DNA from: a virus
IMG/VR virus record: IMGVR_UViG_3300036790_000425
Location: 64,001 to 128,000 of that record
Length of the DNA stretch: 64,000 nt
Reading direction: 5' to 3' (one strand)
Shown here: positions 15,932 to 59,301 of the stretch, piece by piece
Numbering within the stretch: the first letter of the stretch is position 1
Layout of the letters: the number at the start of each line of letters is the position of its first letter
Translations under genes and position numbers: made by a program
Notes under the pieces: model-generated
Databases searched by the model: none
What the model was told of the DNA's origin: nothing
Seen by the model: the letters and a program-made list of their open reading frames with translations, nothing else

Positions 15932-16870
15932 TCAGGCCGCGGCGTCCTCCGCGATCCCGGCACTGGCCGGGGCGATGCCGGCGGCCTGCGCGGGCATCCC
16001 GTCCACGATCTGGCGGGCGGCCTTCTGGATGCGCGAGCCGGACTCCCTGATCATCTTGCGGGCCTGCCCGGGGTCGCCGCGCATCCAGCTCAGCACGTAG
16101 CCGAAGCTGTAGTCCGAGGTGTCGGCGCCGAGCGCGGCAGCCGCGATGTAGGCAACCGACTCGGCCTCCAGCTCCTTCAGCCCGGCGGGAGCCTCGCTGC
16201 TCTCGTGCAGCAGGACGTGCCCGGCCTCGTGCAGCAGGGTCTTCAGCTGGCCCATCGTGGACCGGCCATCGGTGGCGATCCGGACCCGGCGCAGGCTCCA
16301 GGTCGTGTCGCCGTTCTTGGAACCGGACTCGAAGCGGTCCACGAACTCCACGTCATAGCCGGCCGAGTTAATGAAGGCGACCGCGCGGGCGATCATGCCC
16401 TCGGGCGCCTCGCCCGTCAGCTTGCGGACCGGCCCGGGCAGCGGCTCGCCCTCGGTCTGGCTGATGTCGAATACCGGCACCGGGACGAAGAACGGGATGC
16501 GCCGGGTCTCGCCGGTCTCCTCGTCCTCGACCTTGCGGGAGGACGGGGCCCAGATCCAGATCGCGCGCTGGCGCTGGCCGGTCTCGTCCGGGCCCTTGAC
16601 GTGGCGGCCCAGGAGCAGCCAGCCCGACTTCGGCTTGCCGGTGACCTTGTCGGTCGTGCCGAAGCTGGTGACCCGGGTGGCGTGCGGGCACTGGGCCATG
16701 ATCAGCATCGAGTTGCCGAAGCTGTAGGTGTGGAAGCGGGCCTGCACGTCCAGGTAGGCCTGCCAGGTCGCGGAGGTAGCCAGCGCGTCGATGCCGGCGG
16801 CCAGCTTCTCGGTGATCTCCGCGCGGTGGTCGGTCTTGGCGCGGGCGGGCTTGCGGGTCGTCTTGGTCAT
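15932..16870 (-). CDS. ardC: ArdC-like protein (ssDNA-binding N-domain plus zincin HEXXH domain)
   Basis: FHTYSFGNSMLIMAQCP.AT.V, W...GRHVK, VFDISQT.G, LLHEAGH, ELEAESVAY, SFGYV.SW. Confidence 0.85.
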   Translation of the reverse strand: MTKTTRKPARAKTDHRAEITEKLAAGIDALATSATWQAYLDVQARFHTYSFGNSMLIMAQCPHATRVTSFGTTDKVTGKPKSGWLLLGRHVKGPDETGQRQRAIWIWAPSSRKVEDEETGETRRIPFFVPVPVFDISQTEGEPLPGPVRKLTGEAPEGMIARAVAFINSAGYDVEFVDRFESGSKNGDTTWSLRRVRIATDGRSTMGQLKTLLHEAGHVLLHESSEAPAGLKELEAESVAYIAAAALGADTSDYSFGYVLSWMRGDPGQARKMIRESGSRIQKAARQIVDGMPAQAAGIAPASAGIAEDAAA

Positions 16871-16958: not shown

Positions 16959-18866
16959 TTACTGATCGCTGACCGTGTCCCACAGATCCTCGCTGGGCCG
17001 CGGGTTCTCGATCCGTTCGATCTCCTCGGCATGCTCGGAGTTGAACATGGCCCTGATCTCCTCGGCCTGCTGCACGGCCGAGGTGAACAGCCCGGTGAAC
17101 TGCTCCATCGCCTGCTTGGTCCCCGGCCCGATCGGCAGGCCGTCGGCGCTGTCCTTCAGCCCGCTGAAGGCCGCGGCGACCTCAGTCATTGACTCCGGCA
17201 TGCCGTCGAAGATGTCCCGCATCTCGCGGGTCGTGGTCGGCTGGTGGGTGGCAACGGCCGAGCTGAACTGCTCGGCCGCCGAGTGGATGACTCCTGCCAT
17301 GCCTGCTCCTCCTCCTGAGAATGCTGCGGCCGTGCCCGGCCGGCGGCGGCCGGCGAGCGGGATGCTGCCCGGGACCGTGCCCGCGGGCTCCGGCATGCGG
17401 CCGTCCTCCGGGTCCGCCCGGGTAGTCACGGGGCGCTCGGGCGGCCTGGTCCAGTACGTAGGCGGCGCCTGCCTCGCGCGGCTCCGCTTCCTCCAGAATA
17501 GCAAGAAACCTGCCAGGCCCGCGCCTGTCGCGGCGGCGGTGCCCGTCCGGCCGCCCCAGGCGCGCATCCGGGCCCTCAGCGGGGTCCGGCCGCTCCACCG
17601 GCCGGCGATGCGCCGGGCCAGCGGCGGGACGCCGCCCGGGTAGCGCTTCGCCAGCCTCGCCACGCGCCGCGCCCGGAGCCTGCTCGTCTGGGCCCGGGAC
17701 TTCCGCCGGGTCCAGGCATAGCTGTCCCGGGTCTTGATGCACGTGATGGTGCGCCACTTCCGGGCATGCCGCCACCTGCCCCCGGCTGCTGCCCTCCGGG
17801 CGTTATTAGCGGTCTTGCGGCCCTGGGCCGCCGCTACCCGGGCGTCCTTGCGCCGCTGGCGCGAGGCGTGCCTGTAGTCCCTGCGGCCCTGCCGCCCGCC
17901 GCCCTTTCCTGCCTTCCGGTTGTGCCGTGCCAGGCGGGCCGCCTGAGCGCGCTGGCGGCCGGCGGCGGTGGGGTGGCGCAGGAACCGGCCCGCGGCACGG
18001 GTGCGCCGGAGCCTCGGCGCGCCGCCGAGCGCGCCTGGCGCGGCGGCGGCAGCGGCACGGCGCGCGGTCCGGGCGGCGCGGCCCTGCGCCTTCTGGCTGC
18101 GCCGGTACTGGCGCCGCTGGCCCGGGTGGCGCATGCCCGGCCGCCCGCCGGGGAAGCCTGGCGCAGAGGTGCCGCGCCGGCCGAAGACACTGCGCCTGCC
18201 GGTCTTCGCGCCAGCGCCCGTGCCACTGCGCCGGCGGCCGGCCTGGCCCGTGGCGCGCCGTCCCGTGCCGGCTGTCCCGGCACGGCTGCGCCGGCCTCCG
18301 CCGAGCGGGTGGCGCATGGTGCGCTTGCCGCGGGCGCCGGCTCCGCCGGGGACGGAGTGACGGCCGCGCCGGGCGCCTGCCCCGGCGGCGGCGCTGCCCT
18401 TGCGGCCGGAGAACGGGTTGAGCCGGGCCAGGCCCTTCCTGCCCGCGGCGGCGGTCCCGGCGCCCTTCCTGCCGCCGGCCGCGGCGCTCAGGCGGCCCTT
18501 ACGGCCGCCCAGTCCCGCTCCGCCCCGGCCGCTGCCGAGACGGCCGCGCATGGCGCCGCCCAGCCGGCCGCGCTGCCCGCGGGTGATGGTCCGGGTCGTC
18601 CGGGTACGCCGCATCCCCGGCTTGCGCCGGTTGGCGTTGAAGTGCTGCCGGATATGCGGCAGGTAGCGGAGCACCAGGAAGCCGGCGAACAGGGCGGCAG
18701 CCGCGACGATGATGATGATCGCCGTGCCGCCGCCTGCCTTGTGAACCAGGGCGGCGACCCCGGCGACGATGAGCAGCAGGACGGTCCCGCCGCGGCGCCA
18801 CATGTGCGACCGCGGGCGGGATTCCGCCTGCTGGGCGGGGACTGTTTCCTCAGCCAACTGGGACAC
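16959..18866 (-). CDS. Membrane-anchored Arg/Gly-rich protein with a C-terminal helical domain, resembling actinomycete plasmid/AICE transfer-region proteins
   Basis: Two N-terminal TMs, a long basic region, and C-terminus F..EH..EIER..NPRP.E.LWD. Internal RBS GGAGGAGGAG before ATG 17300. Confidence 0.6.
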   Translation of the reverse strand: MSQLAEETVPAQQAESRPRSHMWRRGGTVLLLIVAGVAALVHKAGGGTAIIIIVAAAALFAGFLVLRYLPHIRQHFNANRRKPGMRRTRTTRTITRGQRGRLGGAMRGRLGSGRGGAGLGGRKGRLSAAAGGRKGAGTAAAGRKGLARLNPFSGRKGSAAAGAGARRGRHSVPGGAGARGKRTMRHPLGGGRRSRAGTAGTGRRATGQAGRRRSGTGAGAKTGRRSVFGRRGTSAPGFPGGRPGMRHPGQRRQYRRSQKAQGRAARTARRAAAAAAPGALGGAPRLRRTRAAGRFLRHPTAAGRQRAQAARLARHNRKAGKGGGRQGRRDYRHASRQRRKDARVAAAQGRKTANNARRAAAGGRWRHARKWRTITCIKTRDSYAWTRRKSRAQTSRLRARRVARLAKRYPGGVPPLARRIAGRWSGRTPLRARMRAWGGRTGTAAATGAGLAGFLLFWRKRSRARQAPPTYWTRPPERPVTTRADPEDGRMPEPAGTVPGSIPLAGRRRPGTAAAFSGGGAGMAGVIHSAAEQFSSAVATHQPTTTREMRDIFDGMPESMTEVAAAFSGLKDSADGLPIGPGTKQAMEQFTGLFTSAVQQAEEIRAMFNSEHAEEIERIENPRPSEDLWDTVSDQ

Positions 18867-19989
18867 CTCCGGGGATGAAGGGCTGAGCAGGGGCGATCAG
18901 GTCGCCCTGCCCGTTCGCGTGCCGGGCCGGCGGCAGCGGCCGGAGGCGCTGGGCTCGCTCGGCTCGCTCGGCGTTCAGCAGCCTCGTGCCCCAGCGCCGC
19001 TGATCGGACTCCTCGGGCGGGGCGATCATGCGGGCGACCTGGCGGTAGGTCGTGGCCGCCAGGTCAGTGTCGGACAGGCCGGCCAGCTGATCGGCCACCT
19101 CGCGCCGGCGCTCGGCGCTGACCCCGGCGGGGACCCGGGCATCGGCGCTCAGCTCAGCCGCCGCGCTGTGCACGGCGGGCACCAGGCTCAGGCGGCCTGG
19201 CGCGGCGTCCTCGTGCGCCATCGCTGGCACGTCCTCGTGCGCCATCGCTGGCGCGGCTGGCGCGGCTGGCGCGGCTGGCGCGCTCTCGATCGCTGGCACG
19301 TCCTCGCGCGCCACCACCTCCGGCACGGATGGCGCGGGCAGTGATGGCGCGGGGATGGCGCGGCGCGGCGCGTCCTCCTGGCGCGGGGGCTTGATCACGG
19401 CCGGGCCCTCGGTCATGTAGTCGCTGATGGCACGCTGCGGGCTGGTCTCGCCGTACCAGGTGGCGCGGCGCATCACCCGGAACGAGCCGACCGGGTGCCA
19501 GGCCACGCGGGTGGCTCCGAGCCGGACAGCGTGCTTCTCGATCAGGCCCTGGGCCATCAGCTTGTCGCGGCTGACCCGGCGCGAGTGCACCGACCACAGC
19601 CACGGCGAGATCGAGGACATCAGGCCGAAGATCAGCGCGGCCACGGTCGGCCGCCAGTGACTCGCGAAGTGGCTGTAGTTCATGGCGCCGACGATCAGGG
19701 CCAGCGCGTAGGACGACAGCCGCAGCCGGGCGGTCGAGTCGTTCTTCAGCTGCGCCTCGTGCGCCTGGTAGGCCAGCACGACGGCAATCAGCTCCAGGAT
19801 GACCGCCACCAGGATGACCGACCAGCGCGGCACCGGCAGGTGATCCCGCAGGTAGGCGTACTGACCGATGAAGGCCGCGATGTTCACGCCCACGATCGGG
19901 ACAGCGGTCAGGACAGCGCTCACACCATGCCGGAAGCGGTCACTCCTGATCACTTCCAGGACCTCGGCAGACCCGTCACGCATCGTCAT
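18850..19989 (-). CDS. DUF2637-like multi-TM protein (Spd-like plasmid spreading protein)
   Basis: About 4 TMs, A..LE.IAV, MNYSH, Pro/Ala repeat linker (APA x4, AHEDVPAM), C-terminal HTH-like region. Divergent from traB. Confidence 0.65.
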   Translation of the reverse strand: MTMRDGSAEVLEVIRSDRFRHGVSAVLTAVPIVGVNIAAFIGQYAYLRDHLPVPRWSVILVAVILELIAVVLAYQAHEAQLKNDSTARLRLSSYALALIVGAMNYSHFASHWRPTVAALIFGLMSSISPWLWSVHSRRVSRDKLMAQGLIEKHAVRLGATRVAWHPVGSFRVMRRATWYGETSPQRAISDYMTEGPAVIKPPRQEDAPRRAIPAPSLPAPSVPEVVAREDVPAIESAPAAPAAPAAPAMAHEDVPAMAHEDAAPGRLSLVPAVHSAAAELSADARVPAGVSAERRREVADQLAGLSDTDLAATTYRQVARMIAPPEESDQRRWGTRLLNAERAERAQRLRPLPPARHANGQGDLIAPAQPFIPGGVPVG

Positions 19990-20019
19990 CTCCTCCTCGC
20001 AGTTGTCCTCAGCACATCC

Positions 20020-20048
20020 ACATTATCAAGAAAACCTGTAATCGTCGA
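20020..20048 (-). promoter_or_regulatory. Promoter of the Spd-like operon, with the conserved box
   Basis: TCGACG-N17-TAATGT. Plus strand reads TATCAAGAAAACCTGTAA. Confidence 0.7.
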
Positions 20049-20049
20049 G

Positions 20050-20302
20050 GATCACACCTGCGGAACCCCGGTTTCCGGGGGTCAGGGACCCGCTTCGATC
20101 ACAGTCACAGTTCCTGACCTGCCCGTCCTCGAAACTGTGATCGAGTAGTGATCCGGCAGACCGTGACTGTGACTTAGCGGGGTTCCTTGCCAGGGTCAGG
20201 GGCCCCGGATCACAGCGATCTTTGTTTAGACACGGACACGATCGGTGATCACTAGCAATGAAACTGATATTTTCGACGTTATCCATAACAATGACTGATC
20301 AC
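20050..20302. repeat. Array of GATCAC/GTGATC and GTCAC/GTGAC repeats, candidate clt-like cis site
   Basis: GATCAC or GTGATC at 20050, 20097, 20137, 20148, 20208, 20245 and 20297. Inverted pairs TCGATCACAG/CTGTGATCGA and AGTCACAGT/ACTGTGACT. Confidence 0.6.
20253..20273 (+). promoter_or_regulatory. Conserved box and candidate -10 upstream of traB
   Basis: TAGCAATGAAACTGA-TATTTT, the same geometry as the 6949 and 27379 sites. Confidence 0.5.
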
Positions 20303-20319
20303 TACCGGAGGAGCCGCAG

Positions 20320-22281
20320 GTGAGTGCCCCGACGACCAAGACCTGGGAGCACGTCGCGGAGTGGACAGCGCTGCTCAGCGCTGCCGTGCTCACCGCCGTG
20401 GCTTACCTGCCCGGCATGGGCGCGCCCGCGTGGTGCGTCCCGGTGCTGTCCGCGGTGCTCGGCCTGATCGCGGCGGGCGTGGCCGCTGCCGTGGCCGGCG
20501 GGAGGTTCGCCGCCTGGTGCGCCGCCTACGGCGCATGGTGCGCCGCCTGGAGCTACTGGGCCGGCACGCGCGGCCTGTGGCACCCTGTTGTCGTGATCGC
20601 CTGGATCCTGGGGGCCGTCGCCTTCGTCGCGGCCGGCGCGCTCCTCCTGGCACACCGCCGGCCGGCGCAGCTGGCCATCGAGGCCGCGCCGGACCCCGAG
20701 GAGGCCAGCCGCCTGGAGGTCCTGGCGCAGTGGGACCACCTGTTCGCCTCGGTGGACTGCGAGGGCGTCCGGACGGTCGAGGTCATCGACGACAAGGCCA
20801 CGCCGGGCCGGGTGATCCGGGCCGAGCTGCCGCGCAAGGGGCACCTGACCATCCGCAGCCTGGAGACCCAGGCGCACCGGATGGAGGTCGCGCTGCGGCT
20901 GCGGGAGAACAGCATCACCTTCGCCACCCTGGCGAACGCCGCGGACATCGAGCTGCGGCTGCGGGAGCGGGACCTCATGACCAAGGCCGTCCCGCTGACC
21001 CCGGCGCACTACGCCACCACCATCAACAAGCCGTTCGCCGTCGGCGTGGGCGAGGACGGCAAGATCAAGTCGCTGACCCTGCGCCAGGTCCACATGATGC
21101 TGGTCGGCACGACCGGCGCGGGCAAGTCGAACCTGATCAACGTCCTGACCGGGCAGATGGGCCGGATGGTGGACACCGTCATCTGGTGCATCGACATGAA
21201 GGGCGGCCGGGTCGCCCGGCCGTGGCTCCTGCCGTGGATGAACAACGAGACCGATCAGCCGGTCTTCGACTGGGTGGCTACCAGCCGGAAGGAGGCCGCG
21301 CTGATGATGGACTGCTTCGTGATGGCCATCACCAGCCGGATGAACTCCGGCCGGGGCGGGTCGAAGATCACCCCGAAGGCCAATATCCCGCAGATCATCC
21401 TGCTGGTGGACGAGGCGGCCGACCTGATCGGCCAGGACAAGGGCCCGACCCTGGCCGAGGCCGAGCGGCTCGGCGTGCTGACCAACCGGCAGTTCGCCAA
21501 GCGCTTCGGAGAGATCACCCAGAAGGGGCGGTCCGAGGCTGCCTCCGCAGTGATCGCCACCCAGCGGGGCACCAACAGCATGTCCGGTGACGGCGACATC
21601 AAGGGTCAGTGCAAGACCCGGATCCTGCTGGGCACGGTCAACGAGAATGAGGCCCGCTACGTGCTGAACGACGACCCGCAGGCCTGGCGGCTGGCCACGA
21701 TGGCCTCCGCCATCCCGGGTGCCGGGGTCATCGGCGTCGGCCGGGACACCTCGCTGCTGGTCAAGTTCTTCCTGCTGGACCACCCGGAGGTGCCGGGCAC
21801 CGAAACCGGCGAGACGCTGTGTGATGACGGCTGCGTGCCGGAGTGCGCGGTCCGGATGACCGCGATCGAGACCGGCCGGGTCCGCCCGGCGCTGGACCAG
21901 GAGACCGCCGCCAGCATGGGCGAGACCTACGCCGACCGGTGGGCCCGGGCCCGGGACGCTGGCGTCATCACCCGGGTGCCTGCCCGGCGCCAGGTGGCCG
22001 CGGTCAGCACCGCCGGGTTCGAGCAGATCATGTCCGACTCGGGGATGACCGACCCGGACCAGGACGTGGACCCGCGGCGGCTGCGGATGCGCGAGCTGCT
22101 GGCCTCCCGGGGGCCGGCAGGCGGCACACCCAACTTCCTGTGGACCAAGATGGCGGAGGAGGGCATCACCGTGGCCCGGGAGACCCTGTCCCGGTGGCTG
22201 CGCGCCGACGCCGACCGCGGCCTGTGCCACTCGGCTGATGAGCATGGCCGCTGGCGGATCGGCCAGAAGCCGGCCGCCTAG
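20320..22281 (+). CDS. traB: TraB-type FtsK/SpoIIIE DNA translocase
   Basis: Four N-terminal TMs, Walker A GTTGAGKS, IDMKGG, Walker B LLVDE, IATQR, C-terminal winged-helix (VARETLSRWL). GGAGGAG RBS. Confidence 0.85.
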   Translation: MSAPTTKTWEHVAEWTALLSAAVLTAVAYLPGMGAPAWCVPVLSAVLGLIAAGVAAAVAGGRFAAWCAAYGAWCAAWSYWAGTRGLWHPVVVIAWILGAVAFVAAGALLLAHRRPAQLAIEAAPDPEEASRLEVLAQWDHLFASVDCEGVRTVEVIDDKATPGRVIRAELPRKGHLTIRSLETQAHRMEVALRLRENSITFATLANAADIELRLRERDLMTKAVPLTPAHYATTINKPFAVGVGEDGKIKSLTLRQVHMMLVGTTGAGKSNLINVLTGQMGRMVDTVIWCIDMKGGRVARPWLLPWMNNETDQPVFDWVATSRKEAALMMDCFVMAITSRMNSGRGGSKITPKANIPQIILLVDEAADLIGQDKGPTLAEAERLGVLTNRQFAKRFGEITQKGRSEAASAVIATQRGTNSMSGDGDIKGQCKTRILLGTVNENEARYVLNDDPQAWRLATMASAIPGAGVIGVGRDTSLLVKFFLLDHPEVPGTETGETLCDDGCVPECAVRMTAIETGRVRPALDQETAASMGETYADRWARARDAGVITRVPARRQVAAVSTAGFEQIMSDSGMTDPDQDVDPRRLRMRELLASRGPAGGTPNFLWTKMAEEGITVARETLSRWLRADADRGLCHSADEHGRWRIGQKPAA

Positions 22282-23012
22282 CCTGCCGCGGCGGGGGCCT
22301 CGGCCGGGGCGATCTCGGGCGGGGCCTCCACTGCTGCTACCGAGGGAGTCGCGGGCAGCGGCGGCTGGCCCGCGGCCGAGAGCGTCTGCTCCACGTCCGC
22401 GCCCAGCGTGCCGCGGTCGGCGTCGGCGCTCAGGATCTTCCCGGTGGTGTCGTGGTACTGCTGCATCCGGCGCCGGGCCTCCCCGAGCCGGCCCTCCATG
22501 TCCTGGAGCCGCTGCGCGGCGCCCTCGCTGACCGCCGCGGAGTGCGCGGCGGCCTGGTCGGTCATCCGCTTGGCCTCCGCCCGCGCGCCCTCCAGGGCGA
22601 TCTCGGCCTGCTCCCGTGCCCCGGCCGCGACCTTGTCGGCCTCCTCGCGGGCGTCGGCCAGGAGCTGGCGGGCGGCGTCCTCCGCGTCTGATCTCAGCTG
22701 CGCCGCGGACTGGTCGGCCTCGGCCTTCTGGCCGGCCAGCTCCTCGGCCGCCATCCTCATCAGGTCGGCCACCAGCCTGGTCGCCTGCGGAGACTCGGCC
22801 GCCTTCGCCAGGGTCTGCTCGGCGTCGTGGCCGAAGTGAGCCACCTGCCGCTCGGCGTCGTGCAGGCGTGTCAGGATCCGGGCGATCCAGGAGTCCACCT
22901 GCTTCGGGTGATAGCCGCCGGCCCCCTGGACCTGGTCGAACCGGGGATCCAGGTCGGGGTCGGCAGCCGGGCCGAGGTCGGTCACCGGGTACTGCTGGGT
23001 GTCGCTGGTCAT
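22278..23012 (-). CDS. DivIVA-domain coiled-coil protein
   Basis: RFDQVQGAGGYHPKQVDSWIARI matches the DivIVA F....GY...VD.F/W pattern, followed by a long A/E/R heptad coiled coil. Confidence 0.75.
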   Translation of the reverse strand: MTSDTQQYPVTDLGPAADPDLDPRFDQVQGAGGYHPKQVDSWIARILTRLHDAERQVAHFGHDAEQTLAKAAESPQATRLVADLMRMAAEELAGQKAEADQSAAQLRSDAEDAARQLLADAREEADKVAAGAREQAEIALEGARAEAKRMTDQAAAHSAAVSEGAAQRLQDMEGRLGEARRRMQQYHDTTGKILSADADRGTLGADVEQTLSAAGQPPLPATPSVAAVEAPPEIAPAEAPAAAG

Positions 23013-23496: not shown

Positions 23497-23889
23497 TCAG
23501 GCCGCCAGCGTGAGCGATCCCGAGGCGATGGTGAAGGTGTCGCCCGAGTTCGTGGTCTTGGCCGCGGTGAGCGCGCCCCACCAGGTGCGGATAGGCGAGC
23601 CGGCCGAGTCCCACAGCTCTACGCCGTTGATCGTGGTCGCCGGCATGTTGGTCACCGTGACCGCGACATTGGAGGCCTTCGAGCCGGCCGAGGCCGCAGC
23701 GAAGGTGACCGTCGGGGCGCCCGTGCCGGAGGTGTACCCGCCGCCGGTCGCCAGCTCGGTGCCGTTGCTGGTATTGCTGCCGTTGGCCGTCATCAGCCGG
23801 CAGGTGATGGGCGTGGTCGGTGAGGTAAGCGTGCCGCCGACGCTGGCGTCCAGCAGCTTGTTCGAGAACGTCTGGTCGAGGCTAGACAC
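23497..23889 (-). CDS. Phage fibre/collar-associated small structural protein
   Basis: NKLLD...GTELATGGGY...VTFAAAS.G...LWDS...WWGAL...KT...GDTFTIASGSL. Confidence 0.65.
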   Translation of the reverse strand: MSSLDQTFSNKLLDASVGGTLTSPTTPITCRLMTANGSNTSNGTELATGGGYTSGTGAPTVTFAAASAGSKASNVAVTVTNMPATTINGVELWDSAGSPIRTWWGALTAAKTTNSGDTFTIASGSLTLAA

Positions 23890-24085
23890 TGGTCGGGCTC
23901 CCGTTCAGGATGGTGAGGCAGCTTCCGTCGGGGCACCCTGCCTGAGCGCAGCACCTGAAGTGGCGGCTGATCATCTCCAGGCCCTGGTCCGCGGGGACCA
24001 CGATCTGGTGGTGACCTTCGGTATCCACCTCATGACAGCCTTCGCACTCGCGCTCCACCCGCGCCGGGGCCTGCGGGTCGCTCAT
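23882..24085 (-). CDS. Small Cys/His-rich protein
   Basis: RECEGC..D...HH...HFRCC...CPDGSC. AGGAGG RBS. Confidence 0.65.
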   Translation of the reverse strand: MSDPQAPARVERECEGCHEVDTEGHHQIVVPADQGLEMISRHFRCCAQAGCPDGSCLTILNGSPTSV

Positions 24086-24114
24086 GGGCACCTCCTGATC
24101 CTTCTGGGGTTGGG

Positions 24115-25104
24115 TTACCAGGTGCGGAACACGGCAGAGGCGCCGACTGCCGCCCGGGTGTCGGTCCGCTTGACGTCCACCGCGGTGACGGCGGACCAGC
24201 CGTGCGCCGGCACGACGTGCACGGCCTTGCCCGTGGTGAGTGCGCGGGCAAGGGTCTGGGGTCCGTGCTTGACGTCGTGCAGCGTGACGTGCACGACCGC
24301 GCCGGTCTGGCCGGCCAGGCCCAGGGAGCAGCTCGCGTAGGCGGCCGGCTCCTTGTACTCGGCCGCGTCGGCCCACACCGGGAAGCTGACCGGGGGCTGT
24401 CCCGGCACCAGCGGAATGATCATTTCGTCTCCCTGGGCAGTCGGCTTCGGCTGGGCGGCGGCCGGGAGGACCCGGGCCGCGAGCTGGGCCTCAGTGCCGT
24501 GGAAGGCAGAGCAGTCCACGGGTCCGGAGATCCCGCTGATCGAGGCCTTGTCGGTGAACTGGAGCAGTACCGGGGTCCGGCCGCCGTAGGGTGCCCACCA
24601 GGACGCCGGGACGTGGCCGTACAGGGCCGCGGGGTCGCCGCCGCCGGACACGTAGGAGCTGGCCCACAGCCAGTCCGCGAAGGTCAGCGACTGGCCGCCC
24701 GTGTACCAGTGCGGGGCGTAGCCGCCGACGGGGTGCCGGGGGTACAGCTTCCGCAGCTCGGCCACGGCGTCGGCGGCCTGGGCGTGCGTCGGGCTGCCGT
24801 CGGGGGCCCGCTCGTAGTCCACGGCGATGCCGAACCGGGACAGGTCCCCGGCGTGCTCGGCGAAGAACGAGGCCTGCGCGGAGCCGCTGCCCTTAGCGTC
24901 CAGGAACAGGTAGGCCAGCGGCACGAACCCGTGCCCGGCGATCCGCAGCATGGCCGTCCTGGAGGCCGCCCAGCGGGGGTTGACGTAGCCCGTGCCCTCG
25001 GTGACCTTCTCCGCGCCGAATCGGCAGCTGGCGCTCACGCGGGCCCAGTCGGGGCTGCCCTGGAAGGACGAGCAGTCCGGCCCGTAGATAACTTTCCCGG
25101 TCAC
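24115..25104 (-). CDS. Endolysin, GH25 muramidase with a C-terminal beta domain
   Basis: GPDCSSFQG, KVTEG, VDYE, LWASSY, LLQFT, GPVDCS. Confidence 0.88.
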   Translation of the reverse strand: MTGKVIYGPDCSSFQGSPDWARVSASCRFGAEKVTEGTGYVNPRWAASRTAMLRIAGHGFVPLAYLFLDAKGSGSAQASFFAEHAGDLSRFGIAVDYERAPDGSPTHAQAADAVAELRKLYPRHPVGGYAPHWYTGGQSLTFADWLWASSYVSGGGDPAALYGHVPASWWAPYGGRTPVLLQFTDKASISGISGPVDCSAFHGTEAQLAARVLPAAAQPKPTAQGDEMIIPLVPGQPPVSFPVWADAAEYKEPAAYASCSLGLAGQTGAVVHVTLHDVKHGPQTLARALTTGKAVHVVPAHGWSAVTAVDVKRTDTRAAVGASAVFRTW

Positions 25105-25184
25105 ACATCTTCCGGGGGCCCGAGGCCATCGTGATACTCTCGGCCACGAGGAGTGAGGACCCGGCCATGCCTGCGTCTCCACAT

Positions 25185-57885: not shown

Positions 57886-59301
57886 TTGAGCCAGCGTTCC
57901 CGCGCGCCAGTGCACAGAGACCGCTCGGGCCCCGCTGCCTGGTGGCGGGCCCGCACGTCGGCCATCGACCTGTCTCTCCTGGAGCGCGTCCTAGGCGGCC
58001 TGCGGCGGATCCCGGAGGACCCGCCCCCGGCACAGTCCAACGGTCATGTCCCGCTGCCCCGGAGGCAGCTGTCCAGGGCAGCGCCGCGAGGGGAGCACGC
58101 CCGGCTGCCCGTGAGCACCCCGGAGCCGCCGCTCCCGCCGGAGCCCGGGCCCGCGGACCCGGCTATCGTCGCGGTGCGCGCCTCGTTCGACGCCCTGGGC
58201 GATAACGAGGACAAGGCGACCAACTACTTCTACAGCTGCCTGTTCGTCGCCCACCCCGAGCTGCGGCAGATGTTCCCGCCCGCGATGGATGAGCAGCGGG
58301 ACCGGCTGTTCCGGGCCATCCGCAAGATCGTGGACACGATGAGCACGCCCGCCGAGCTGGCGGACTACCTGGCGCAGCTCGGCCGCGATCACCGCAAGTA
58401 CGGGGTCACCCCGCAGATGTACGGCGCCCTGGGCGAGGCATTCAACCAGGCGCTGCGCAGGTACGCCGGGGCAGTGTTCACCCCGGCCGCGGAGGAGGCC
58501 TGGACGCAGGCTTACCTGGCGGCCTCCTCGATCATGATCCGGGCAGCCGAGTCCGATCCGGGGCCGGCATCCGTGACCGGGTACGTGATCGAGCACAGCT
58601 ACCGGGGCAACGGGATCGCGACCATGACCGTGGCCCCGGCCGGGCCGCTGCCCTACCTGGCCGGCCAGCACGTCACGATTGAGCACCCGCGCTGGCCGCG
58701 GGTGTGGCGGCCGTACTCGATCGCCAACCGGCCGCGCGACGACGGGATGCTGACCTTCCACGTCAGGGCGGTGTCCGGCGGCTGGGTCAGCAGCTCCCTG
58801 GTGCACTACACCAGCCCCGGCATGCAGCTGACCCTCGGGCCGGCGCTCGGCGGCATGACCCTGGGCCGGGCCGCCAGCCGGGATCTGGTGTGCATCGCCG
58901 GCGGCACCGGGCTGAGCCCGGTGAAGGCCATCGTGGAGCAAGCCGTCCGGGACTCCCTGAGCCGCGGGGAGGCCCGCTCGGTGCACCTGTACTGCGGTGC
59001 CCGGCACCGCGAGGAGCTGTACGACCTGGAGGGGCTGTGGAAGATCTCCGACGCCTATCCGGGCCTGATCGTCACCCCTGTCACCTCCGACGACGTGCTG
59101 TTCGAGGGCATGCAGGGCAACGTCGGCCGGGTGGCAGCCCGGTACCTGCCGCACGGTGACTGCGAGGTCTACGTGGCCGGCCCGGAGAAGATGGTCCGGG
59201 AGACGATCATCCTGCTGGCTGCTGCGGGAGTGCCGCCGGACCGGGTGCACTACGATGACGCGCTGCTGGCCGGGCGCGAGCGCGTCGGCTCAGGTACCTG
59301 A
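57886..59301 (+). CDS. Flavohemoglobin-like protein (globin + FAD-binding + NAD-binding domains); the true start may be GTG 58111
   Basis: FY..LF..HPELR.MFP, MDEQR..L, LGRDHRKYGV, RPYSIAN, GG.VS..L, IAGGTGLSP, YVAGP..M. Confidence 0.9.
   Translation: MSQRSRAPVHRDRSGPAAWWRARTSAIDLSLLERVLGGLRRIPEDPPPAQSNGHVPLPRRQLSRAAPRGEHARLPVSTPEPPLPPEPGPADPAIVAVRASFDALGDNEDKATNYFYSCLFVAHPELRQMFPPAMDEQRDRLFRAIRKIVDTMSTPAELADYLAQLGRDHRKYGVTPQMYGALGEAFNQALRRYAGAVFTPAAEEAWTQAYLAASSIMIRAAESDPGPASVTGYVIEHSYRGNGIATMTVAPAGPLPYLAGQHVTIEHPRWPRVWRPYSIANRPRDDGMLTFHVRAVSGGWVSSSLVHYTSPGMQLTLGPALGGMTLGRAASRDLVCIAGGTGLSPVKAIVEQAVRDSLSRGEARSVHLYCGARHREELYDLEGLWKISDAYPGLIVTPVTSDDVLFEGMQGNVGRVAARYLPHGDCEVYVAGPEKMVRETIILLAAAGVPPDRVHYDDALLAGRERVGSGT

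Follow-up and report, generated by a model that had tools for sequence, protein, structure and literature searches.

The TraB proteins of pSVH1, pIJ101 and the SCP2 type are membrane FtsK-like pumps that are accompanied by small membrane proteins; a winged helix reads short repeats of about 8 bp (clt), and double-stranded DNA (dsDNA) crosses septa (PMC4447253). TraB and Spd proteins also distribute plasmid dsDNA within the mycelium, and Spd homologues on actinophages have been proposed to spread phage DNA in the same way (PMC4447253). pZL12 and pFP4 are published conjugative plasmid-phages (PMC3583192, PMC4170104), and passages in PMC3583192 (citing Zhong 2010) and PMC4170104 state that conjugal transfer of pZL12 requires tra and two adjacent genes. 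Here, a locus that resembles these systems is described from the IMG/VR virus record IMGVR_UViG_3300036790_000425. The window that was analysed is a stretch of 64,000 nucleotides, bases 64001-128000 of one 162,435-bp contig with 70% GC, and the locus occupies positions 16959-23012 of the window. Gene calls based on GC3 and translation place four genes in this block, which encode an Arg-rich membrane protein (P0001), a TraB-like FtsK-family translocase (P0002), a DUF2637-type membrane protein (P0003), and a DivIVA-domain coiled-coil protein (P0004). The gene content and coordinates had been proposed from the letters of the sequence (the original prediction), and they were borne out by the gene calls, Pfam, and AlphaFold2 (AF2) models. 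The module shares homology with the tra genes found in theta-type plasmids and plasmid-phages of Streptomyces. The reading with the best support, to which we give even odds, is that its products form a membrane machinery by which phage dsDNA crosses septa or cell envelopes.

The translocase and its membrane partners

P0002 features a Walker A motif (GTTGAGKS at residue 263) and a Walker B motif (IILLVDE at residue 359). The AF2 model, based on an alignment of 31 homologues, has a pLDDT of 86.8 and consists of four transmembrane (TM) helices, a small beta domain, a RecA-type motor, a disordered linker, and a winged helix. The winged helix is formed by three helices (residues 585-596, 604-613, and 620-632) and two beta strands with a pLDDT of ~90, and is a putative DNA-recognition domain. 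Foldseek ranked the TcpA coupling protein of clostridial conjugation and FtsK motor domains at the top (E 1e-15 to 1e-17), followed by EccC (E 1e-11). Pfam matches of P0002 are at the P-loop level only, as is also the case for the bona fide TraB of pCQ3, and the protein matches phrog_31069, 'FtsK/SpoIIIE-like', with an E value of 1.7e-28. The best NCBIfam family is plasmid_TraB (NF041214, E 1.6e-9, residues 10-452), with a score of 36.9 bits that does not reach the equivalog cut-off of 800 bits. This model is narrow: TraB of pCQ3 scores 850 bits and the tra gene product of pZL12 only 20.2 bits, which is below P0002. A large protein collection holds 33 homologues of P0002, several of them on ~160-kb contigs, and a sample of 201 Actinomycetes genomes gave only 4 hits.

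A hidden Markov model (HMM) built from the motor domains of the phage family matched TraB-like proteins and proteins of the actinomycete integrative and conjugative element (AICE) type with E values of 1e-34 to 1e-48. Chromosomal FtsK (1e-9 to 1e-11) and EccC (1e-6 to 1e-9) were 25-40 orders of magnitude worse than the TraB-like proteins. A phylogeny was calculated with FastTree (LG+gamma, 346 motor-domain columns) from an alignment anchored on the phage profile; neither SffA nor the TraB proteins of pSVH1 and pIJ101 were part of it. The ATPases of the phage, of viral contigs, and of the chromosomal cassettes described below form one clade with a support of 0.95, in which the chromosomal ATPases are nested within the phage clade. 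The sister clade consists of the translocases of pZL12, pNBC1333, pMMBL, pNBC1178, and phage Hiyaa, a sister grouping with weak or no SH-like support, and FtsK and EccC fall outside both the phage and the plasmid-type translocases. The best NCBIfam family, the motor HMM, and the tree together support the assignment of P0002, made in the original prediction, as a TraB-like ATPase rather than an FtsK or EccC.

P0001 begins with a hairpin of two N-terminal TM helices (aa 29-66), followed by a low-complexity region at aa 80-430 that is composed of 25% Arg, 19% Gly, and 18% Ala, and by an acidic, helical C-terminal region. Because an ortholog in viral contig L015 aligns across aa 146-635 with 50% identity (E 3e-96), the reading frame is taken as real. 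The last part of the protein is referred to as the partner domain, and its tail ends in the conserved C-terminal sequence RIENPRPxEExWD. The AF2 model of the partner domain has a pLDDT of 81. The domain matched no Pfam family, and when its model was compared with PDB structures by Foldseek, none matched significantly; the output consisted of generic helical bundles, non-significant WXG100 rows among them. A domain resembling substrates of the type VII secretion system (T7SS) was considered and set aside; the ATPase features a winged helix, and the domain is membrane-tethered in the phage.

When the window proteins were compared by tblastn with 32 loci from bacteria that have a relative of the ATPase, nearly all of these loci proved to have a small open reading frame (ORF) homologous to P0001 aa ~520-635 directly upstream of the ATPase gene and co-directional with it. 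These chromosomal partner proteins are 114 aa long, acidic, and helical, and have the same RIENPRPxEExWD ending. The partner domain is also present in one or two copies in the gene directly upstream of the TraB-like gene in pZL12 and three Streptomyces plasmids, and in Hiyaa gp101, which is encoded directly upstream of the FtsK-like translocase gp102. A profile built from 19 sequences detected the domain in pZL12.72c (7.5e-16), pNBC1178_687 (1.9e-27), pMMBL_534 (7.5e-19), pNBC1333_680 (7.7e-14), Hiyaa gp101 (5.1e-14), and the P0001 orthologs (1e-20 to 1e-43). In every close viral contig and in most of the divergent ones, the ORF adjoining the ATPase gene ends with this domain. The profile search found no partner domain in pCQ3 (SCP2 type), Bacillus phage Bcp1, or phiC31. 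Among 1.84 billion representative proteins the domain occurs in 1013 clusters at E<=1e-3, where it forms free proteins of ~114 aa or, in a single or double copy, the C-terminus of proteins of 350-825 aa.

A chromosomal cassette of two genes, one for an acidic partner protein of 114 aa and one for a membrane ATPase of the TraB-like kind, is found at no fewer than 27 loci of Actinomycetota/Streptosporangiaceae metagenome-assembled genomes (MAGs), for example L038:7213-9509 and L052:7128-8846 (loci L031-L059). The neighbourhoods of the cassettes are variable and non-mobile-looking, with subtilase, GGDEF-EAL, and epimerase genes, and thus the ATPase subfamily is not restricted to conjugative elements. 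The possibility that the cassettes are SmeA-SffA pairs was rejected on the literature: such pairs are limited to Streptomycetaceae and Catenulispora, and their SmeA is a small membrane protein (PMC4255298), whereas the cassettes encode a soluble, acidic partner.

P0003 matches Pfam DUF2637 with 25.5 bits (cut-off 22.8, E 1.4e-5). The protein is polytopic, with TM segments within aa 23-131, and its C-terminal half is rich in Pro and Ala and bears tandem repeats. It is 26% identical to Hiyaa gp98 (E 8e-15) and similar to the C-terminus of pMMBL_582 (E 4e-6), and plasmid pNBC1178 has an annotated DUF2637 gene two genes upstream of the translocase gene. A P0003-type gene is linked to the ATPase gene in the syntenic viral contigs described below, in rearranged viral contigs (L020, L021, L023, and L024), in Hiyaa, and in the plasmids pMMBL and pNBC1178. 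A tblastn search with P0003 against plasmids and phages gave no matches. A search of phiC31, pCQ3, pNBC1333, ZL12, and Hiyaa with PF10935 matched only Hiyaa gp98 (20.4 bits). The original prediction had identified P0003 with Spd proteins, an identification that these comparisons do not support: the protein shows no detectable similarity to pZL12.73c, and phiC31, for which a SpdB2 homologue is claimed, gave no match to PF10935. Within the Pro/Ala-rich half of the P0003 gene, window positions 19206-19282 consist of exact tandem repeats that keep the reading frame (2 x 24 nt followed by 4 x 9 nt); they encode AMAHEDVP and PAA units and may be a length-variable linker.

Table 1. Coordinates of the block, its domains, and associated sequence elements (window positions)
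Feature	Position	Strand	Description
P0001, Arg-rich membrane protein	16959-18866	-	635 aa, GC3 0.90
Partner domain of P0001	16962-17303	-	aa ~522-635, ~110 aa, three-helix bundle
P0003, DUF2637-type membrane protein	18850-19989	-	379 aa; first gene of leftward operon
Divergent intergenic region	19990-20319	.	330 bp, 54% GC
Element copy TACAGGTTTTCTTGATAA	20023-20040	-	1 mismatch (TATCAA), 34 nt upstream of P0003 start codon
RTCACAG/GATCAC repeats	20098+, 20104+, 20135-, 20167-, 20209+	both orientations	candidate clt-like site or operator
P0002, TraB-like FtsK-family translocase	20320-22281	+	653 aa
P0002 TM helices	20332-20655	+	aa 5-112, AF2 model
P0002 RecA-type motor	21034-21768	+	aa 239-483, AF2 model
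P0002 C-terminal winged helix	22072-22260	+	aa 585-647, AF2 model
P0004, DivIVA-domain coiled-coil protein	22278-23012	-	244 aa
ArdC-like flanking gene	15932-16870	-	ArdC-N-like N-terminus and HExxH metalloprotease-like domain
TACAGGTTTTCTTGCTAA element copies	13691, 14180, 15866, 16880, 20023	-	~18 more in genome

Conservation in a family of large myoviruses

The 162,435-bp contig is recorded as a virus with a CheckV completeness of 100%, and its first 25-mer recurs 133 bp before the contig end. The genome encodes a tail sheath, baseplate J, virion proteins, and a GH25 endolysin, and it was rightly predicted to be that of a tailed phage. The tail sheath is only ~28% identical to the sheaths of Mycobacterium cluster-C-type, Rhodococcus E3, and Gordonia myoviruses, and the phage is a myovirus of actinobacteria that is both large and distinct. 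On a single strand at genome positions 133296-141405, where protein-coding genes are sparse, 33 tRNA genes form a block. A search of the whole genome found no tyrosine integrase, serine recombinase, resolvase, or ParB, which extends the predicted lack of an integrase beyond the block, and for this reason the phage looks virulent and obligately lytic.

Chromosomal relatives of P0002 with organism names come from Streptosporangiaceae MAGs. A flavohaemoglobin gene with globin, FAD, and NAD domains is located at window positions 57886-59301 (+), on the opposite strand within the structural/tail block; the database gene call of 375 aa is shorter than the longest ORF, and the organism-named relatives are from Streptosporangiaceae MAGs only. 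This gene is probably a host-derived moron. The relatives of both the ATPase and the flavohaemoglobin point to a host that is likely mycelial.

The context of the locus was compared in three contigs with P0002 homologues and fifteen IMG/VR contigs. Eight independent viral contigs of ~160 kb from different samples share the same gene order, with ATPase identities of 37-59%. The conserved order is primase-helicase, 5'-3' exonuclease, an ArdC-like gene in some, the Arg-rich protein, the DUF2637 protein, the divergent junction, and the ATPase, and in 7 of the 8 contigs it continues with the DivIVA-domain protein, small genes, the GH25 endolysin, and SNF2 and DEAD helicases. In the divergent viral contigs the triad is co-directional and follows the plasmid order of membrane protein, partner protein, and ATPase. 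The linkage of the triad thus outlasts rearrangement, which argues for a functional unit.

The plasmid-like gene content could also stem from a chimeric assembly or from the recent insertion of an AICE or part of a plasmid, and nothing else was found in favour of such an origin. The synteny of the block in the eight independently assembled contigs from different samples speaks against it, as does the whole-genome search, in which no integrase or resolvase was found. No att-like direct repeats were found flanking the block, its GC content is continuous with the flanks, and a promoter-associated element found throughout the phage genome is located upstream of the leftward operon. Additionally, the phage proteins are only 22-31% identical to their plasmid homologues. 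A chimera or recent insertion is consequently given almost no credence, and these comparisons support a module that is native to and long-resident in a family of ~160-kb actinobacterial myoviruses. A blastn search of the block against a phage collection gave no matches.

Intergenic region, neighbouring genes, and proposed role

The intergenic region between the divergent P0003 and P0002 genes contains 5 of the 19 RTCACAG sites in the genome, where 21 sites are expected, and this cluster is the only one in the genome. GATCAC occurs at 8 sites in the region. Repeats of the GATCACA/GTCACA type are found in the orthologous intergenic regions of six relatives (L007, L009, L010, L013, L014, and L017), and that of L015 has seven GATCAC sites. 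The predicted repeat array is therefore real, but its designation as clt was overstated: the localised cluster is a candidate clt-like site and would fit an operator between divergent promoters equally well.

An 18-nt element, TACAGGTTTTCTTGCTAA, has 23 copies in the genome at <=3 mismatches, mostly just upstream of genes, and contains the -35-like hexamer TTGCTA. Copies precede neighbouring phage genes, the ArdC-like gene included, and the element looks like a promoter or regulator site that is specific to the phage. The element is 18-24 nt long, and the copy upstream of P0003 spans 20017-20040 in its 24-nt form. TAGCAA boxes had been predicted at both divergent promoters. This prediction is only half right: the copy at 20017-20040 was found with one mismatch, whereas the exact TAGCAA at 20253 also points leftward, as that copy does, so that no such box is in evidence for the ATPase promoter. 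A scan of the intergenic region for sigma-70 consensus promoters found nothing.

The P0003 and P0001 genes overlap by 17 nt, and the P0004 gene is convergent with the ATPase gene, with a 4-nt overlap. P0004 matches Pfam DivIVA (PF05103) over residues 31-130 with 31.4 bits (cut-off 28) and NCBIfam DivIVA_Wag31 with an E value of 1e-6. The gene adjoins the ATPase gene in the 7 close relatives whose locus reaches beyond the ATPase; the contig of L017 stops inside the ATPase gene, and a DivIVA gene was not detected in the divergent viral contigs. The resemblance of the P0004 domain to the host polar-growth determinant Wag31 would be expected if the ATPase, the membrane proteins, and the DivIVA-like protein acted on polar growth, septation, or chromosome segregation of the host, or exported or degraded host DNA. 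Such a host takeover would also agree with the PHROG category of related proteins ('moron, auxiliary metabolic gene and host takeover') and with the promoter-associated element that the leftward operon shares with genes of the replication-gene region. However, the winged helix, the localised repeats, and a conserved triad in common with transfer loci suggest that the substrate is a specific DNA of the element, and we regard host takeover as unlikely.

The ArdC-like protein flanking the block has a Pfam ArdcN match below the cut-off (E 3.6e-4, 21.2 bits, cut-off 22.6), a Peptidase_M78 match (E 3e-3), and a match to the anti-restriction protein phrog_7245 (7e-6). Its motif LLHEAGHVLLH contains the HExxH signature, in line with the predicted ArdC assignment, which is weakened by the ArdcN score and by detection of the gene in only 4 of the 8 close relatives. 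It is doubtful that the ArdC-like gene is part of the module. For both the DivIVA and the ArdC-like genes a functional tie to the module is suggested by synteny within one closely related family only, and their inclusion as module members in the original prediction was overstated.

An anti-restriction gene next to the module would suit a role in superinfection exclusion or defence, in which the pump and its partners block or expel the DNA of competing phages or plasmids. PADLOC gave weak matches to mad8 (E 3.5e-8, 31 bits) and HerA, but these are limited to the P-loop core, and P0001, P0003, and the partner protein matched no defence family in PADLOC. The module is also kept like core genes across the phage family, unlike variable accessory defence genes, and a defensive role is considered very unlikely. 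On the other side of the P0004 gene, a plus-strand gene at 23510-24340 is conserved in relatives, with 60-80% identity across the first ~130-200 residues; its longest ORF has 225 nt in common with the 3' end of the endolysin (GH25) gene (24115-25182, -).

The transport of phage dsDNA would involve three components. The pump core would be the TraB-like hexameric FtsK-family ATPase, with the four TM helices as its anchor and the C-terminal winged helix. P0001 would serve as a membrane-anchored adaptor, in which the C-terminal partner domain, a regular companion of the ATPases of this subfamily, is combined with an Arg-rich tract of ~350 residues that may hold DNA at the membrane, and the polytopic P0003 would be the third component. 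Once the phage DNA has replicated in one compartment of a hypha, the pump would be loaded by its winged helix onto the RTCACAG cluster or onto DNA generally, and it would push unpackaged phage dsDNA through septal cross-walls to neighbouring compartments, and possibly to prespores or contacting hyphae. P0004 could possibly direct the apparatus to curved membranes at septa or tips. The infected territory would then grow without virions or receptors; such virion-free transfer, also put forward in the original prediction, is a hypothesis. Since the genome looks obligately lytic, conjugation from donor to recipient would deliver a lethal genome, which fits the spreading of an infection and not plasmid-like transfer; spreading within the mycelium would thus be the most natural role for a lytic genome. 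We infer the substrate, the direction, and the biological role of the apparatus from its homology, architecture, conservation, and regulatory embedding.

Several points weigh against the transport of phage DNA through septa. The closest cellular relatives of the module are two-gene chromosomal cassettes without recognisable mobile-element context. The assignment of P0003 to DUF2637 is marginal, the P0003 orthologs in three relatives miss an E value of 0.01, and the protein lacks similarity to the spd-region membrane proteins of pZL12 (pZL12.73c) and pNBC1333. TraB recognition sequences are typically plasmid-specific, whereas the repeats here are conserved across phages and are placed between divergent promoters, as an operator would be. 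The genome has no integrase, resolvase, or ParB, and classical conjugation would hand on a lethal genome. Additionally, the mycelial habit of the host is deduced from the MAG relatives.

The septal location of the proposed pump would also be compatible with spore loading, in which phage DNA is moved across sporulation septa and the genome is kept in prespores as a carrier state without vegetative spread. Large myoviruses that infect sporulating Bacillus also have FtsK/SpoIIIE-like genes with adjoining membrane-protein genes (Bcp1_208 and Bcp1_210), and Streptomyces FtsK and SffA act at sporulation septa (PMC4255298). The DivIVA-domain gene adjoining the ATPase and the chromosomal two-gene cassettes without conjugation context are consistent with such a role. 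However, the closest characterised relatives are plasmid transfer genes and not sporulation genes, in a tree that did not contain SffA, and Bcp1 lacks the partner domain. Spore loading is judged to be rather unlikely. If the septal transport of phage dsDNA is extended to its full scope, a family of virulent ~160-kb myoviruses would move naked genomes through septa and perhaps between touching hyphae, as a second route that is independent of virions and receptors, and the partner domain would be a universal coupling factor in phages, plasmids, and chromosomes. This broader proposal is tentative, and we would sooner expect it to fail than to hold.

If the module works in the proposed manner, lytic phages of filamentous bacteria would gain a second, virion-free way of spreading inside a multicellular host. 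This would change views on plaque formation, on the containment of infection by hyphal compartments, and on receptor-based resistance in antibiotic-producing actinomycetes. The partner domain and the chromosomal cassette are useful regardless of the phage, as testable handles on the FtsK-like dsDNA conjugation machinery of actinomycetes, which is poorly understood. Because cultivable phages of the Hiyaa type and pZL12 have homologues of all parts, the question is directly testable.

Comparison with known transfer systems

Like pZL12, the phage is a tailed-phage genome with a TraB-like translocase (22.5% identity, E 7e-13), a partner domain in the gene beside the translocase gene (profile 7.5e-16), and a polytopic membrane-protein gene before it. 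pZL12, however, lives as a plasmid-prophage and is temperate; it has ParAB and a TraR-like regulator of the GntR type, and its spd-like operon is co-directional. The phage has no partition, integration, or GntR gene. The phage operon is divergent, its putative adaptor features an Arg-rich tract, a DivIVA gene adjoins it, and P0003 is not detectably similar to pZL12.73c. A ~90-kb Streptomyces 'plasmid' typed as non-mobilizable (NZ_CP108377.1, 62337-81506) has a terminase gene directly beside transfer genes, which comprise a GntR gene, a spd-like operon, a partner-domain gene, a TraB-like gene, and kilB. This record looks like a pZL12-like conjugative phage-plasmid, judging by its gene content, and several similar records of ~86-99 kb were matched.

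P0002 shares with the TraB proteins of pSVH1, pIJ101, and the SCP2 type a membrane-anchored FtsK-like motor and a winged helix, and its best family is plasmid_TraB, with a score far under the equivalog cut-off. The SCP2-type locus of pCQ3 lacks the partner domain. In comparison with the Streptomyces TraB/Spd plasmids, the phage has no TraR or Kor regulator, and P0003 showed no similarity to the characterised Spd proteins or spd-region proteins with which it was compared. P0002 has a RecA-type FtsK-fold motor in common with FtsK/SpoIIIE and T7SS EccC/EssC, but it has a single motor domain and lacks the FtsK gamma/KOPS logic, and the repeats form one cluster and are neither genome-wide nor polar. 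Bacillus phage Bcp1 features an FtsK/SpoIIIE-like gene beside a polytopic membrane-protein gene at 138558-142274, without the partner domain. This gene pair of large Bacillus myoviruses may represent a solution that arose in parallel in a different host that sporulates.

Hiyaa has three homologous parts, P0003 and gp98 (8e-15), the partner domain and gp101 (5e-14), and P0002 and gp102 (24%, 5e-22). It differs from the phage in being an 83-kb Streptomyces siphovirus with a free partner protein of 122 aa. No function of gp98, gp101, or gp102 has been published past annotation, in which gp102 is an 'FtsK-like DNA translocase'. The published plasmid-phages, the Spd proposal, and the annotation of Hiyaa mean that a phage with TraB-type transfer genes is not a new idea, and the novelty claimed in the original prediction overlooks pZL12 and pFP4 (PMC3583192, PMC4170104) and the suggestion of Spd-mediated spreading (PMC4447253). 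In relation to these systems, what is new is the module as a conserved core in a family of virulent-looking 160-kb myoviruses. Also new are the recognition of the three-part homology with the partner domain included, the Arg-rich and membrane-tethered form of the putative adaptor, and the two-gene cassettes on chromosomes.

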